Assembly (NCBI GenBank): GCA_030633185.1
Contig: DAOVTG010000002.1
Coordinates: 1-42,236 of the forward strand
Length of the DNA stretch: 42,236 nucleotides
Direction: 5' to 3'
Source: Deltaproteobacteria bacterium
GTDB taxonomy: Bacteria > Desulfobacterota > Anaeroferrophillalia > Anaeroferrophillales > Tharpellaceae
Shown: piece after piece, positions 18,697 through 28,297 of the stretch
How the letters are laid out: every line of letters starts with the position of its first letter
Numbering within the stretch: the first letter of the stretch is position 1
Made by a program: the position numbers and the translations under genes
The notes under the pieces: generated by a model
The model's database searches: none
The model's input: only the letters and a program-made list of their open reading frames with translations
Told to the model about the DNA's origin: nothing

Positions 18697-18800
18697 AGTT
18701 CGCTGCTATTGGTGGTAAGTTTATGGCTTATTGTAGTATGGTTCTTGCTGTATCACAGAACTTCAAAGTATAAATCTATTTAATAAGGAGTGTGACAACT

Positions 18801-20381
18801 ATGAATTATGCCAACTATGCTTGTCTGCATGCTCGTCATCTGCCGGAAAAAGTTTGCTTGATTGAGCGAACCCCGGCGACCGGTGAACGGCGTACCTTAA
18901 CCTGGAAAGTCTTTAATCAATCAATTAACCGGGTTGCCAACTATTTGAAGAAGGAACTCGGAATCAAGCAGGGTGATTATGTCATGCACCTGCAGAACAA
19001 CAGCCTGGAATGGTTGGTCAGTTACTATGCCATCATCAAGCTTGGAGCCGTGGTAGTGCCGCTTAATTTTCGTTTTGTCGGAAATGATATCAAGTTTGCA
19101 GCCGAGGTTTCCAAGCCTAAGGCTTTCATCTTTGGTTCCGAGTTTCTCCCGGTTGTAGAACCGGTTCGTAAAGAGTTAACGACGGTCAAGGACTTTGTTT
19201 GTGTCGGAGAGAAGATTGGCGAGGGGATGATCGATTTTCGTGAGCTCGCGGCCTACGATGATATCTCGGAAGCCCTGGTCGAGGTTGAGGCTGAGGCTGA
19301 TCTGGCGATGATGTTTACCTCCGGAACTACAGGAAAGCCGAAACCGGTAAGTCACACCCATTTTTCTCTGAACAGTACCGCTATCGGTAACGGGATGAGT
19401 TATTTTGTCGAAAAAGACGACAATTACCTCTTCTTTTTGCCCCTCTACCATAGTGGTACGATGTTTCTCTGGGCTCCTTTCTATGCCACCGGAGCCACCG
19501 GGACAATTCTTCGGGATTTAAAGGATCCCAAATGGATTATTGAAGCGTTGGCCGAAGAGAAGGCTACCGATGTTCTCTTTGTCGTGCCCATCGCAGTAGC
19601 TATTCTTAACGCTATTGATAAGGGTGATATCAAACTTGAGGATTACGATCTTTCAGCCTGGAAATATATGGAGATCGGGGCTCAGCCGGTACCTTTTGAT
19701 GTCATGAAGCGGTTGGTCGAGATCTTGCCTTGTGGGGTTTCCAATATCTACGGTATTACTGAAGGCGGCGGGGGTGGTACTTTTAATCTCTATCCCGATG
19801 AAGTTCTGGAACGGCCCGGTTCCATCGGTAAACCGACTTTCGGGGTTGAAGCCCGGCTTGTCGATTTCGCCGGTAATGAGGTCGGCCCGGAGGAGGTTGG
19901 CGAGTTGACATTCAGGACTCCTCGGATGATGAAAGGCTATTTTGGTAACCCCGAGATGACGGCTGATTCATTAAAGGACGGCTGGCTCTATACTGGGGAT
20001 CTTTTAAAGACCGATGCCGATGGTTATTATTATATTGTTGATCGCAAGAAAGATATGATTACCAGTGGTGGTGAAAATATTTTTCCGGTGGAGATCGAAG
20101 ATGCCTTAATGGAACATCCCGATATTGATGATGTTGCTTGTATCGGGACGCCAGACGAGCGCCTGGTTGAAGCCGTGATGGCTATTATTCAGCTTAAAGA
20201 GGGACGAACCCTGACTGAAGAAGAGCTCCTTGATTTTGCCAAAACCAAGCTTGCAACCTATAAACTGCCTCGGGTTATCAAGTTTGATCAGGTCATGCGT
20301 AACCCGACCGGCAAACTCATGAAACCCCAGATGCGGGAGAAATACACCGGCCGTAAAGAGGCCTTCCAAAGCCTGGTTTAG
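18801..20381 (+). CDS. AMP-dependent acyl-CoA synthetase/ligase (substrate unknown)
   Basis: AMP-binding motifs MFTSGTTGKPK, YGITEGGG, GDLLKTDADGYYYIVDRKKDMI, and a C-terminal PTGKLMK. ATG 18801 is preferred over the track GTG 18792 because AGGAG lies 10 nt upstream of it. Confidence 0.85.
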   Translation: MNYANYACLHARHLPEKVCLIERTPATGERRTLTWKVFNQSINRVANYLKKELGIKQGDYVMHLQNNSLEWLVSYYAIIKLGAVVVPLNFRFVGNDIKFAAEVSKPKAFIFGSEFLPVVEPVRKELTTVKDFVCVGEKIGEGMIDFRELAAYDDISEALVEVEAEADLAMMFTSGTTGKPKPVSHTHFSLNSTAIGNGMSYFVEKDDNYLFFLPLYHSGTMFLWAPFYATGATGTILRDLKDPKWIIEALAEEKATDVLFVVPIAVAILNAIDKGDIKLEDYDLSAWKYMEIGAQPVPFDVMKRLVEILPCGVSNIYGITEGGGGGTFNLYPDEVLERPGSIGKPTFGVEARLVDFAGNEVGPEEVGELTFRTPRMMKGYFGNPEMTADSLKDGWLYTGDLLKTDADGYYYIVDRKKDMITSGGENIFPVEIEDALMEHPDIDDVACIGTPDERLVEAVMAIIQLKEGRTLTEEELLDFAKTKLATYKLPRVIKFDQVMRNPTGKLMKPQMREKYTGRKEAFQSLV

Positions 20382-20425
20382 TCAGGTTATCAGTAGATGT
20401 TGGCTGTTGACTATGATTAAAACAA

Positions 20426-20466
20426 AAAAGCAGAGAGTGCGTCCTCGCACTCTCTGCTTTTCTATT
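20426..20466. terminator. Bidirectional intrinsic terminator between convergent genes
   Basis: 13-bp GC-containing stem AGCAGAGAGTGCG (20429-20441) / CGCACTCTCTGCT (20446-20458) with loop TCCT. It is flanked by an A-run upstream and a T-run downstream, so a U-tract follows the hairpin on either strand. Confidence 0.75.
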
Positions 20467-20547
20467 CCGGGGACACCTTACTTAATTCTAAAGAATTAAG
20501 TAAGGTGTCCCCGGAATAGAAGCCCCGGAATAGAGCCCCGGGAATAG
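20462..20547. repeat. Perfect 28-bp-arm palindrome plus reiterated CCCCGG(G)AATAG motif
   Basis: 20462-20489 (CTATTCCGGGGACACCTTACTTAATTCT) is the exact reverse complement of 20492-20519. The motif CCCCGGAATAG then recurs at 20523-20533 and, as CCCCGGGAATAG, at 20536-20547. Confidence 0.85.
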
Positions 20548-20578: not shown

Positions 20579-21913
20579 TTAGTGAGAGACCAGATTAAGG
20601 TCATCTTCAAAGGAGAACTCCGGGTCGGTGTTTGCGGTGTGGCAGATGGTGCAGGTTGAAGCTTCGATTTTCAGGCCATAAGGGAGTTCTGGTTCCTTGA
20701 TATGTTCCTCGGCCGGGCCGTGGCACTCTTCGCACTGGATGTTAAAGAGGTCAGGGGTCGCTGATGGTGAACGAAAACCTTGTTTGTCGTGTTCCCGGCT
20801 GCCGGTGACGTGGCAGGGCAGGCAGTCAGGGCAGAAGTCTTTGCACTTTTTCTGGAGGCTGGCGTAGGCCCGGGCATGTCCGGTGTTTTTCCATGAGGCC
20901 GAGATCTTGGGATGGCAGGTAGTGCAGGTATGGATGCTGACATAGGGGACTTTAGCCGTCAGATCAGTCACAGTTCGCTCTTTGCTTTTTTCCACTTCAA
21001 CATAGTGCTGTCGCAGCCAAAGTTCATGGTCGCTGACTAGATTGGCAATCTTCTGATCGGCTTTATAGAGCTCTTTCTTGACCTTGACGATTTTGGCATT
21101 GGTTGGGGCTTTGGCCGTAAAATCCCAATCCAGGTAGCCGATGGTTTTGCCGTGGTTGTTATTTTTGACCAGCCAGCAGCCGTTGATAAGTTCACTCTCT
21201 TTCATTGTGCCTCGCTGGGTGCCCAGGATCGCGACATCGAGGCCGCTAATCCGGCGGATGAGACGGCGGGCCTTGGTATCGGAAAAATGGAGAACTGCAA
21301 CGGCCAGGTCGTGCGGCGTCTCAAGAATTTTTTTCAGAGTTGAAAGCGGGTCTTTGATTTGCAGGCCGTGAATCGCTTTTTTCTCAAGATCCGGATCGAT
21401 GATTGCGGTAATCAGCACCTTCTTATTATTGATGGTAAAAACTTTGTGGGTTTCGAATCCCGGGATCGGCAGCCCGTCCAAGTTGCCGCAAAGGATGGTA
21501 CTATTGGGGGCATTCTTTTTTAGCGAGCTCATCATCTGGCGTCCGTAAATCAGCTCTTGAGCACCCGGGGTGAAGATCTCAGTGCCGATAAGTTCATAGC
21601 CTTCAAGGGCGGTTTTGAGAGCTTGGCGTTTAACCTCGAAGTCATTTTTAGAGGTTCTTTTGGTCAGGTTGCCACAGTTGATAAACAGGCTCTTTCCCGG
21701 GTCGGCATCGCGGCGCAGAATATCAATGGCTGTTTTCTGACGGGCCAGACCGCCCGCCTGTTTTTTGTGTCAACCGCAGAGTTTGACATAGCCGGAGAGA
21801 GAGCCTATATAGATGAGGCGAAAATCAGACCCCTCAGCCCGGCAGCCGGCGGGGAAAAGCAGGTTGAGGGAAAAGCCGATAAAGGTGAAAAACAGCAAGA
21901 AAACTTTTGTCAT
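20579..21913 (-). CDS. Candidate selenoprotein: lipoprotein-type signal peptide, degenerate 5'-nucleotidase/metallophosphoesterase-like domain with Cys-Gly-Sec, and a C-terminal tetrahaem cytochrome c (in-frame TGA at 21770-21772 read as Sec, codon 48)
   Basis: The track ORF 20579..21535 carries four CXXCH motifs (CTTCH, CLPCH, CEECH, CTICH) but has no signal peptide or SD. The same frame stays open upstream to ATG 21911-21913 (AAGGA 7 nt upstream), apart from one TGA. The extension reads MTKVFLLFFTFIGFSLNLLFPAGCRAEGSDFRLIYIGSLSGYVKLCG-U-HKKQAGGLARQKTAIDILRRDADPGKSLFINCGNL... A SECIS-like hairpin follows the TGA. Confidence 0.6.
21739..21758 (-). promoter_or_regulatory. SECIS-like hairpin 11 nt downstream of the in-frame UGA
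   Basis: The mRNA reads UGA-CACAAAAAACA-GGCGGGC-GGUCUG-GCCCGUC: a 7-bp stem (six Watson-Crick pairs plus one G.U) and a 6-nt loop containing GGU. Spacing and loop resemble the E. coli fdhF SECIS as I recall it (UGA, 11 nt, then GGUUGCAGGUCUGCACC). Confidence 0.55.
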
Positions 21914-25852: not shown

Positions 25853-26983
25853 ATGATGAAAAATATACGCTGTAAAAATCTTGAGCATGTAAAGTTGGTG
25901 GTCGTCAAGCTCGGCAGTGCCGTGTTGACCGATAATGGGCATCTGAACGCCTCTTTTTTTACCCGTTTTGCCGGTGAAATCGCCCAACTGCGGCGTCATG
26001 GTTATAGTTTTATCGTGGTTACATCAGGAGCCGTTGCTGCCGGTCTTGAGGCTTTGGGTTTTACGTCTCCACCGTTGACTATTCCGGAAAAACAGGCTTG
26101 TGCAGCAGTCGGACAGCTGCGTTTGATGCGCAAGTATGAACAGGAGTTTGCTGCTCATGATCAAGTTGTGGCCCAAGTATTATTAACCGCGGATGACATT
26201 CGCAACCGGCGTCGTTATCTTAACGCCCGTAACACTTTAAGAGCGTTGCTTGGGGCTGATATTTTACCTCTGGTTAATGAAAATGATACCGTCGTCGTGC
26301 GGGAGATAAAATTTGGTGACAACGACAATCTGGCGGCCCTTCTGACTTCACTGGCCGAAGTCGATCTTTTATTGCTGTTGACCGATCTCGACGGGGTCTA
26401 TAATTGTGATCCCAAAGTGGTGAGTGGAGCCTCGTTGATACCTTTGATTGACGAAGTTGATGCTGAGGTTACAGCTTTTGCCTGTACCTCCAAGAGTGCA
26501 GTTGGGAGCGGTGGTATGCTCAGTAAACTGGAAGCGGCTCGCAAAGCCGCAGCTTACGGAATCCCGACGGTTATTGCCAATGGTCGGCGACCCGGGGTTA
26601 TGAGCCGTGTTCTGGCCGGTGAGGACGAAGGTACCATTTTTCTACCGCGAGCCAATCGTTTGAGTTGTCGTCAACACTGGCTCGCTTTTGCCGTCAAACC
26701 CCGGGGCAGTCTTTACCTCGACAAAGGAGCCGTCAGGGCTCTGATTGAGCGCGGTACAAGTTTGCTGCCAGCAGGGATCTTCCGGGTCGAAGGCGATTTT
26801 GGGGTCGGGGAACCGGTCTCTTGTCGTGATCTCGAAGGGGCCGAGATCGCTCGCGGACTGGTCACTTACAGCTCTTCAGATATTAAAAAGATCGCCGGTC
26901 TTCACTCTCGGGAAATAACCAGCCGCTTAGGCTATGATGCCGGAGCCGAGGTTATTCATCGAGATAATTTAGCACTTTTGTGA
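25853..26983 (+). CDS. proB: Glutamate 5-kinase
   Basis: 376 aa. VVKLGSAVLT N-terminus, the amino-acid kinase fold motif FGDNDNLAA, and a C-terminal PUA domain. Confidence 0.92.
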   Translation: MMKNIRCKNLEHVKLVVVKLGSAVLTDNGHLNASFFTRFAGEIAQLRRHGYSFIVVTSGAVAAGLEALGFTSPPLTIPEKQACAAVGQLRLMRKYEQEFAAHDQVVAQVLLTADDIRNRRRYLNARNTLRALLGADILPLVNENDTVVVREIKFGDNDNLAALLTSLAEVDLLLLLTDLDGVYNCDPKVVSGASLIPLIDEVDAEVTAFACTSKSAVGSGGMLSKLEAARKAAAYGIPTVIANGRRPGVMSRVLAGEDEGTIFLPRANRLSCRQHWLAFAVKPRGSLYLDKGAVRALIERGTSLLPAGIFRVEGDFGVGEPVSCRDLEGAEIARGLVTYSSSDIKKIAGLHSREITSRLGYDAGAEVIHRDNLALL

Positions 26984-27040
26984 GTTATTGTCTGGTGTGA
27001 AAAGGGGTGGTTAAAGTTTTTAAAGGTGAGAGAAGAAATT

Positions 27041-28297
27041 ATGGACATTGAAAAAAAAGTTAGGGAACTGGCGGTTCAGGTCAAAACTGCAGCTCGGGTG
27101 TTGGCAGTGGCCCCGACTTTGGAAAAAGATAGAGCTTTGCGGGCGATGGCTGCCGGTTTGAGAGAACGAAGCGGTTTTTTGCAGCAACGTAACCGACTTG
27201 ACTTGGAAAAAGCTTGTGAAAACGGCTTAAGTGCAGCCCTGATCGATCGTCTGACTTTGAGTGATAAGGTGATTGAGGTGATGGCTTCAGGTCTTGACGA
27301 GGTGGCGGTGTTTCCCGATCCGGTGGGTGCGGTGGAGCGTATGTGGCGGCGTCCGAATCAGTTGCTGATCGGGAAGATGAGAATTCCTTTGGGGGTTGTC
27401 GGAATGATTTATGAGTCTCGGCCGAATGTCACCGCCGATGCCGCCGGGCTCTGTCTGAAGTCCGGCAACGGGGTTATTCTTAGAGGAGGATCTGAAGCTT
27501 TTCACTCAAATATGGCGGTGTTAGAGGTCTTGCACGAAGCCTTGGAAACCACTTCAATTCCGGCATCCGTGGTTCAGGTAGTACCTTTTACCGAGCGTCA
27601 GGCGATAAATTATCTGCTCCAGTGTGAAGAGGAGATTGATCTGATTATTCCGCGCGGCGGCGAGGGTTTGATTCGTTTTGTGGTTGAGCATTCCCGGATT
27701 CCGGTGATTAAGCATTACAAAGGGGTCTGTCATGTTTTTGTCGATGACGGGGCCGAGGTCGAGATGGCCCGAAAAATCGTTGTCAATGCCAAGACCCATC
27801 GGCCCGGAGTCTGTAATGCTGCTGAAACAATTTTAGTGCATCAGGAGATTGCGGCAAGCTTTTTACCTTTGATGGCGGCTGATTTGCAAGAAAAACAGGT
27901 CGAGATCAGGGGTTGTGACAAAACTTTGGCTCTGCTTCCCGATTTGCGGCCGGCGACCGATGAGGATTGGGCTGCCGAGTATCTTGATCTGGTGGTTGCC
28001 GTCAAGGTTGTCGATGATTTTGAGGCAGCCGTTGCCCATATCGCCCGGTACGGCTCCGACCATACGGAGACGATTGTTACCAGCGATTATCATCGATCTC
28101 AGGAATTTTTACGTCAAGTCAACTCATCGGTCGTCATGGTCAATGCCTCAACTCGTTTTTCCGATGGCGGGCAGATGGGGCTGGGGGCCGAGATCGGGAT
28201 CAGCACAACTAAACTCCATGCCTATGGCCCCATGGGGCTTGAAGGTTTAACCACGACTAAATATATTATTTATGGCGACGGTCAAATCAGAGAGTAG
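27041..28297 (+). CDS. proA: Gamma-glutamyl phosphate reductase
   Basis: Aldehyde dehydrogenase-type ProA with GVVGMIYESRPNVT, ILRGGSEA, CNAAETILVH. ATG 27041 (MDIEKKV) is preferred over the track GTG 27026. Confidence 0.92.
   Translation: MDIEKKVRELAVQVKTAARVLAVAPTLEKDRALRAMAAGLRERSGFLQQRNRLDLEKACENGLSAALIDRLTLSDKVIEVMASGLDEVAVFPDPVGAVERMWRRPNQLLIGKMRIPLGVVGMIYESRPNVTADAAGLCLKSGNGVILRGGSEAFHSNMAVLEVLHEALETTSIPASVVQVVPFTERQAINYLLQCEEEIDLIIPRGGEGLIRFVVEHSRIPVIKHYKGVCHVFVDDGAEVEMARKIVVNAKTHRPGVCNAAETILVHQEIAASFLPLMAADLQEKQVEIRGCDKTLALLPDLRPATDEDWAAEYLDLVVAVKVVDDFEAAVAHIARYGSDHTETIVTSDYHRSQEFLRQVNSSVVMVNASTRFSDGGQMGLGAEIGISTTKLHAYGPMGLEGLTTTKYIIYGDGQIRE

Follow-up and report, generated by a model that had tools for sequence, protein, structure and literature searches.

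A probable selenocysteine-containing UshA-like tetrahaem cytochrome gene in a Deltaproteobacteria bacterium

The window analysed here is a stretch of 42,236 nt from a Deltaproteobacteria bacterium (assembly GCA_030633185.1, contig DAOVTG010000002.1, positions 1 to 42,236). On its minus strand, a frame of 444 codons (21913 to 20579) encodes a multihaem c-type cytochrome and contains a sole internal stop, a TGA at codon 48 (21772-21770). This UGA very probably encodes selenocysteine (Sec) within a Cys-Gly-Sec-His motif (a probability of about 0.88), directed by a downstream selenocysteine insertion sequence (SECIS), and the gene would then be a genuine bacterial selenoprotein gene. An earlier note on this DNA had proposed the same reading, which is upheld here by an alignment column that alternates between TGA and Cys codons, a hairpin specific to the Sec-type genes, low synonymous variation and a standard genetic code. 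The case is neither a new kind of recoding nor a new selenoprotein family: by sequence comparison, the gene is placed in a divergent sister clade of the known UshA-like CxU superfamily, one that the curated model of that family misses.

The reading frame, its start and the signal peptide

Translation of the frame revealed no disruption other than the TGA, which is preceded by YVKLCG and followed by HKKQAGGLARQ in the protein (flanks IYIGSLSGYVKLCG-TGA-HKKQAGGLARQK). Mechanical calling of open reading frames (ORFs) starts the gene at an internal ATG (21535-21533, minus strand; Met127) and yields 318 aa, but the true frame extends 126 codons further upstream and is open there apart from the single TGA, as the earlier note had read it. 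The full coding sequence (20579-21913, minus strand), as defined by translation and by collinear relatives, runs from the ATG at 21913-21911 through 444 codons to a TAA stop (20581-20579). A ribosome-binding site, AAGGA, is read directly at 21925-21921 and is separated from this ATG by 7 nt (ACCGGAA). The same AAGGA-N7-ATG arrangement recurs in relatives (L001-L007, L012 and L015), whereas inspection of the sequence upstream of ATG 21535 revealed no comparable Shine-Dalgarno sequence. These observations, which bear out the contrast that the earlier note had drawn between the two starts, support ATG 21913 rather than Met127 as the likely translation start. A promoter-like site on the minus strand (21954-21927) was rejected, as it directly abuts the ribosome-binding site and cannot serve a start at ATG 21913; the other matches of the promoter scan are weak.

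The extension opens with a hydrophobic segment resembling a signal peptide (MTKVFLLFFTFIGFSLNLLFPAGCRA), and such a segment is present in every full-length relative. Residues 1-26 (21836-21913, minus strand) are accordingly predicted to form a signal peptide for the secretory (Sec) pathway, likely cleaved after ..CRA; the corresponding segments of the relatives also end in small residues (..SRA/GE, ..SQA/KG, ..AQA/GE), and cleavage after Ala26 is the estimate favoured here. The earlier note was therefore right that the extension supplies a signal peptide, but not that it carries a lipobox, LFPAGC. Cys24 of this motif is found only in the window protein and in L001, the other clade members having S, G, A or T, and the Pro at position -3 departs from the conserved [LVI][ASTVI][GAS]C pattern. 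Lipoprotein status was rejected on these grounds, and cleavage by signal peptidase I appears to be a better reading than lipidation.

The TGA codon in related genes

A scan of one genome per species gave 210 loci with relatives, of which 79 distinct loci were retained, and the upstream frames of these loci were translated with TGA marked as U. In the closest loci, tblastn coverage over residues 1-444 continues across the TGA. At the same alignment column, 48 related loci have TGA and 28 have TGY (Cys), together 76 of the 79. The TGA carriers comprise all 15 relatives of the window clade (59-79% and 46-48% identity), with the motif LCGUH[KR]KQAGGLARQK, and a Desulfobacteraceae group with the motif PCGUHELQAGGLSRQK. 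Further carriers, which extend over several phyla, belong to Blastocatellia, Fermentibacteria, Gemmatimonadota, metagenome-assembled genomes (MAGs) resembling Eisenbacteria, and others. Cys codons are found in Nitrospinota, Thermodesulfovibrionia, Sorangium/Polyangiaceae and others, and these Cys-type homologues are single ORFs without interruption. The motif Cys46-Gly47-Sec48 of the window protein (TGC GGT TGA; 21770-21778, minus strand) is invariant in all clades as C-G-[U/C].

Conservation is found on both sides of the TGA in the 15 clade relatives (flanks FRLIYIGSLSGYVKLCG / HKKQAGGLARQK). The conserved stretch upstream of it begins FRLIYIGSLSGY, the upstream frame is open, and the block that spans the codon in the clade reads FRLIYIGSLSGYVKLCGUHKKQAGGLARQK. 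L001-L015 are collinear full-length ORFs, 443-461 aa long, in which U stands at codon 48-63, and a hydrophobic N-terminus, CG[U/C] and four CXXCH motifs are found in every full-length ORF. The clade member L006, which is syntenic and 72% identical, comes from Candidatus Tharpella aukensis (candidate phylum Tharpellota), and the relatives closer than this one are MAGs of Thermodesulfobacteriota or 'Deltaproteobacteria'. Gene order is also conserved in the clade (uvrA / gene / acyl-CoA synthetase / argJ / secA / M23 peptidase). Given the shared TGA column and this conserved synteny, the TGA has been inherited and is neither a recent nor a strain-specific lesion. The comparison of homologues that the earlier note had proposed was thus carried out and came out in its favour: TGA or Cys is aligned at position 48 with conserved sequence on either side, homologues that start at the equivalent of Met127 were not encountered, conservation reaches upstream of the TGA, and the TGA is not confined to one strain.

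A different picture is given by protein databases. A protein search returned 52 homologues, all shorter than 444 aa, whose starts are scattered but always downstream of the TGA, and none of which reaches the TGA position. Missing from all 52 entries are Sec, the signal peptide and the first 50-130 residues, as would result from gene callers stopping at a recoded TGA. The entries of the clade (P0001-P0049) are named 'multiheme c-type cytochrome', 'mono/diheme cytochrome c family protein' or 'hypothetical protein', and no selenoprotein annotation was found among them. A cross-clade profile search of the protein database mostly recovered the same clade again, plus one useful full-length Cys-type protein.

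The candidate SECIS hairpin

Exactly 11 nt after the UGA (CACAAAAAACA), the mRNA contains GGCGGGC / GGUCUG / GCCCGUC, which folds into a 7-bp stem (21739-21758, minus strand; 5' arm 21758-21752, loop 21751-21746, 3' arm 21745-21739). The loop begins 18 nt after the UGA, with its GGU at nt 22-24. In the published model of the bacterial SECIS (bSECIS), the apical loop has 3-9 nt with a G in its first two positions, the upper stem has 4-16 bp, the distance from the UGA to the loop is 16-37 nt and the minimum free energy (MFE) is at most -7.5 kcal/mol (PMC13188914). The window hairpin lies within all of these limits, with a 6-nt loop, 7 bp, a spacing of 18 nt and -13.4 kcal/mol, and the hairpin described in the earlier note is thereby confirmed. 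It was also the only one of its kind in the window, where 12 in-frame TGAs have long open frames on both sides and a SECIS-like hairpin is found at TGA-48 only.

Hairpins that satisfy the bSECIS model were found in 28 of the 48 distinct Sec-type sequences (in the window clade, in the window and 13 of the 15 relatives) compared with only 1 of the 28 Cys-type sequences and 12 of 500 shuffles. A conserved peptide, A-G-G-L-A-R, is encoded by the stem, which makes the Cys-type control important: the Cys-type genes encode GG[LVI]AR as well, yet without the hairpin. This comparison argues against protein constraint as the whole cause of the conservation of the stem. In the codon alignment of the clade, synonymous variation reaches its minimum for the gene at codons 49-56 and 50-57 (0.205 vs a mean of 0.434). 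The Gly codon of the loop is GGT in 16 of 16 clade members, and the wobble bases paired with G are always pyrimidines. Across 19 distinct sequences, 93.2% of the stem cells are paired, against 26-50% when the partners are slid, and the observed pairing was reached by none of 500 shuffles. Changes within the stem altered one pair on both sides and three on one side.

A known element for comparison is that of E. coli fdhF, whose minimal form is 17 nt long. Among 5426 E. coli genomes, 5419 carry the stretch used here (TGACACGGCCCATCGGTTGCAGGTCTGCACC...) under fdhF, and it bears out what the earlier note had said of this element: as in the window gene, the UGA is followed by CAC, the hairpin begins 11 nt on, and GGUCUG occupies nt 22-27 counted from the U of the UGA. 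By contrast, the two proteins are unrelated, the stem sequences differ, and no bulged U is evident in the window hairpin, whose 6-nt loop is closed by a C-G pair. By analogy, decoding would presumably be SelB-dependent, as in fdhF.

Two further observations concern this region and the in-frame TGAs. A terminator-like site reported on the plus strand at 21741-21756 consists of the complement of the SECIS stem and the complement of the AAAAAA that follows the UGA, and it was discarded as a scan artefact. Elsewhere in the window, proB (glutamate 5-kinase), which ends in TGA (26981-26983), and proA share the same frame (25853-28297, plus strand), with a 42-nt spacer devoid of stops, 437 codons of readthrough and no SECIS-like hairpin; the shared frame is most likely a coincidence.

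Alternative readings of the UGA

Several observations weigh against the Sec reading. No selA, selB, selD or tRNA-Sec gene was found within the 42-kb window, and no sel or tRNA-Sec gene was found in the flanks of the related loci L001-L019. The stem overlaps the conserved GGLAR motif, and its conservation is in part protein-driven. Compensatory covariation is sparse, the second stem pair being mismatched in 8 of 19 sequences, the fold energy of a single 71-nt segment is ordinary (z = -0.57), and an Rfam scan of the window, SECIS models included, gave no family match. The match of the window protein to the curated NCBIfam model of the family, NF041198, scores 188.7 bits, below the curated cutoff of 275. 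Finally, in the structural models discussed below, confidence is low for the CG[C] loop and the haem domain, and no reliable geometry between CG[U/C] and the haems emerges.

Set against these points, the alternatives fare far worse. The one that survives best, though it is improbable, is that UGA-48 is read as a standard amino acid (Trp, Cys or Gly), through reassignment of the code or near-cognate readthrough, and without Sec. UGA reassignments occur in some uncultured bacteria, and the window yielded no gene of the Sec machinery. However, TGA is the ordinary stop of 6 of the 29 other genes of the window (recN, an M23 peptidase gene, rex, proB, comF and lptF), and elsewhere than at codon 48 this organism therefore uses UGA as a stop; a genome-wide reassignment was rejected in view of these standard-code stops. 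In addition, the position of the hairpin, the size of its loop and its GGU match a SelB-binding SECIS in the register of fdhF, the column holds Cys in homologues, which is a typical Sec/Cys pair, and the family is curated as a selenoprotein family.

It is less probable still that the TGA is a true stop, with the tetrahaem protein made from an internal start (Met127 or another) and the upstream 47 codons forming a separate small ORF or leader. Gene callers give exactly such products in 52 of 52 database entries, and the lack of Sec machinery genes in the window would fit. Nevertheless, the shortened product would be deprived of the signal peptide that a c-type cytochrome needs, and the N-terminal domain would lose its first strand and its only invariant motif. 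The called starts vary between genomes, amino-acid conservation is continuous across the TGA, the Cys-type homologues are uninterrupted, and a ribosome-binding site precedes ATG 21913 and not ATG 21535. A pseudogene, in which the TGA, one substitution away from TGC or TGT, would be a sequencing error or a nonsense mutation of a codon for Cys, the alternative residue in homologues, is the least credible reading and is contradicted by the comparative data, as 48 independent assemblies of several phyla (including 15 of 15 syntenic clade relatives) have TGA at this one column, no other frame disruption is present, and the SECIS-type hairpin goes with TGA rather than with TGY.

Domain architecture and fold

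Beyond the signal peptide, the protein for which Sec incorporation is proposed has two domains. The N-terminal domain (approximately residues 31-300; 21014-21823, minus strand) is related to UshA and other 5'-nucleotidases, with degenerate metal motifs, as indicated by NCBIfam, AlphaFold2 and Foldseek. The C-terminal domain (residues 322-444; 20582-20950, minus strand) is a tetrahaem domain resembling cytochrome c554, recognized by Pfam and by sequence matches in the PDB. Its CXXCH motifs, encoded at 20926-20912, 20824-20810, 20734-20720 and 20653-20639 on the minus strand, are invariant in all clades. Pfam detected only the cytochrome c554-like domain (PF13435, 3.3e-11, residues 329-399), and the PDB sequence search likewise matched the haem domain only (6i5b and cytochrome c554, 1bvb, 8e-7). 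The best NCBIfam match was NF041198, with weaker matches to SoxB and UshA-type nucleotidases over residues 50-297.

Structures were modelled separately for residues 49-444 of the window protein and for a full-length Cys-type relative, P0053. The AlphaFold2 model of the window protein had a predicted local distance difference test (pLDDT) score of 84-98 over model residues 11-250, and Foldseek matched it at a probability of 1.00 to UshA (2ush, 1.5e-12), SoxB (2wdc, 6.5e-11) and 3ivd. The relative P0053 gave the same UshA/SoxB fold, also at a probability of 1.00 (3ivd, 3.4e-21). The fold alone is retained: the motifs that bind the two metals are replaced in the window protein (DxH by SLS, GD by GN, GNHE by GAQE and GHxH by TQRG), and an active dimetal phosphoesterase was rejected on this basis. 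Across clades, the only invariant residues of the N-terminal domain are Y35, G41, C46-G47-U/C48, G54-G55 and G81. With the metal ligands replaced and C-G-U invariant, phosphoesterase chemistry has therefore probably been lost and C-G-U would be the functional core.

In the C-terminal domain, the invariant residues are the four CXXCH motifs and several others, including H346, H404 and H444. His444 (20582-20584) is the very last residue and is invariant in all clades. These three are the only invariant His outside the motifs across clades, for four haems, which suggests that at one haem the distal position is vacant or filled by something other than His. As three invariant extra His serve four haems, one haem may be five-coordinate or may be ligated by Cys46/Sec48.

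The UshA-like family and comparison systems

The earlier note did not recognize a described family, but one exists. In 2008, the GOS analysis of Zhang & Gladyshev already counted 'COG0737, UshA-like, CxU', represented by 76 Sec sequences, among the known families of selenoproteins (PMC2398784). COG0737 is listed in a later review, with WP_013162925.1 as example (PMC9312934), and another review lists NF041198, CxU, with WP_263046620.1 as example (PMC13188914); the NCBIfam name is UshA_like_PCGU. These three sources assign the family no function and carry it as a table entry or a bare name. The UshA-like family is absent from the 2005 Sargasso Sea paper, and in the library searched no characterised function of the UshA-like/cytochrome fusion was found.

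Like NF041198, the window protein has a signal peptide, the UshA-like domain and, at the C-terminus, a tetrahaem domain of the c554 type (residues 300-436, aligned to model positions 378-519), as well as a C-G-U at the same column followed by GG[LVI]AR. Members of both alternate between Sec and Cys, and C46-G47-U48 and G54-G55, the motif of the model, are invariant across all clades. A number of differences can be noted. The window clade has L-C-G-U-H instead of P-C-G-U; its SECIS loop (GGUCUG) lies 18 nt after the UGA, whereas that of the other Sec clades (GGC) lies 28 nt after it; and of the metallophosphoesterase ligands, the other clades still keep some (D in motifs I and II, GH in motif V) that are replaced in the window protein. 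Scores against NF041198 are 189-243 in the window clade (226 for L012 and 242.8 for L016), while the cutoff is passed by L040 (356.7), L022 (313.6), L023 (297.9) and L034 (281.7). The last but one of these, a Gemmatimonadota locus, also harbors a second PCGU paralogue about 7 kb downstream (17051-18013 of L023; 320 aa, TGA conserved) that has no CXXCH, and is a UshA-like selenoprotein without a cytochrome domain.

The best experimental analogue for cooperation between Sec and a haem chain in the periplasm is MccSep, or ExtKL (GSU2937-2936), of Geobacter sulfurreducens, a pentahaem selenoprotein reported in 2026 to be the polysulfide reductase of sulfur respiration (PMC13510729). Its Sec325 lies beside a His/Cys-ligated haem, and experiments showed that Sec near a haem catalyses sulfur and selenium reduction (PMC13510729). 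As proposed for the window protein, MccSep combines multiple c-type haems with a single Sec in the periplasm; its annotation is split at the in-frame UGA, a SECIS-like hairpin is present, and it likewise has Sec and Cys homologues, in Desulfobacterota and Nitrospirota. It differs in having five haems, an Ig-like C-terminal domain and Sec at position 325 in a D-G-U-P loop, and in lacking a UshA-like domain. Matches of the window haem region to MccSep are weak (NF040886, E = 0.0012 and 17.6 bits vs a cutoff of 250; PDB 9wt8, E = 0.005). Membership of the MccSep/ExtKL family was rejected in view of the NF040886 score, the four CXXCH motifs instead of five and the Sec at residue 48.

UshA/5'-nucleotidases and SoxB share with the window protein the fold of the N-terminal domain, as found with Foldseek, and the periplasmic location that is predicted for it. 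The C-G-U motif is absent from both, and where UshA has a second, substrate-binding domain, the window protein has the tetrahaem cytochrome domain. The latter resembles cytochrome c554 of Nitrosomonas europaea, and its three invariant non-motif His for four haems call to mind the one five-coordinate haem of c554. Whereas c554 is a free electron carrier, the tetrahaem unit of the window protein is fused to a selenoprotein module.

Genomic surroundings

Pfam annotation of 28 ORFs of the window revealed housekeeping genes only. The gene of the window clade is monocistronic among such genes, and analysis of the clade's neighbourhoods found no functional partner.

Downstream of the gene, a GC-rich hairpin of 14 bp followed by a U-run (UUUUGUUUU) was read in the sequence at 20419-20459 (minus strand) and resembles an intrinsic terminator, although the consensus terminator scan did not report it. 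It lies between the selenoprotein gene and the convergent acyl-CoA synthetase gene (18792-20381, plus strand), probably ends the former and possibly, as a bidirectional terminator, the latter too. The segment 20410-20580 (171 nt) folds with an MFE of -95 kcal/mol (z = -13). Between the stop codon and this hairpin, positions 20460-20522 (both strands) form a perfect palindrome whose arms measure about 30 bp each (CTTCTATTCCGGGGACACCTTACTTAATTC-TTTA-reverse complement); short direct repeats (GGGGCTCTATTCCGGGG CTTCTATTCCGGGG) come before it. A search of the window and of the 79 related loci revealed no further copy of the arm sequence.

The surroundings of other clades are more informative. A gene for a DsbA-like CxxC protein (Pfam DSBA, 5e-13) is directly next, on the same strand, in 19 of the 24 Cys-type loci with enough downstream sequence, about 1.0-1.3 kb downstream of the CGC codon (L026, L030, L031, L035, L037, L042, L045, L050, L052, L053, L058, L067, L072, L073 and L075-L079), and in none of 43 Sec-type loci. 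This neighbour is suggestive, in a few independent lineages, of a thiol/selenol redox role of CG[U/C]. Another association, seen in Sec-type loci of Blastocatellia and Cys-type loci of Thermodesulfovibrionia alike, is with the system II pathway of cytochrome c biogenesis. Its genes for ResB (Pfam ResB, 2.8e-52) and CcsA (Cytochrom_C_asm, 1e-32) are encoded on the opposite strand, two to three genes further upstream, at loci L021, L029, L032-L036, L038, L039, L041, L043, L044, L049, L050, L052, L053, L059, L067, L068, L073, L076, L077 and L079. As for the DsbA-like gene, few independent lineages are involved and the association is suggestive.

Proposed mechanism and significance

On the reading of UGA-48 as Sec, the ribosome would read past the UGA with the mRNA hairpin 11 nt downstream acting as SECIS. 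By the established bacterial mechanism, this element would recruit SelB-GTP-Sec-tRNA(Sec), and Sec would be inserted in Cys46-Gly47-Sec48. The 444-aa product would then be exported by the Sec secretion pathway and receive its haems in the periplasm, where it would work as a redox enzyme and not as a phosphoesterase. There, C-G-U might form a selenenylsulfide/selenol-thiol couple in the region of the former active site, with electron exchange between this couple and the four-haem wire; the substrate is likely to be a thiol/disulfide partner or a compound of sulfur or selenium.

The protein may thus tentatively be pictured as a new periplasmic redox catalyst, built from a 'dead' 5'-nucleotidase scaffold, a Cys-Gly-Sec centre and four c-type haems. 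It could act on sulfur or selenium species, as in MccSep and SoxB, or in thiol-disulfide exchange, an option considered because the DsbA-like gene directly follows the Cys-type forms; this picture is less likely than not.

For annotation, the clade is currently misread in all 52 database entries, and a lower cutoff for NF041198, or a sister model, would fix the gene calls of many MAGs resembling Thermodesulfobacteriota. For biology, the family would couple a Sec redox motif to a periplasmic haem wire, in a selenoprotein that must cross the membrane unfolded via the Sec secretion pathway. After MccSep, this would be a second, unrelated architecture combining haems with Sec, and a reasonable target for the enzymology of the sulfur and selenium cycles. 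The biochemical function of the family is the one part with real discovery potential.

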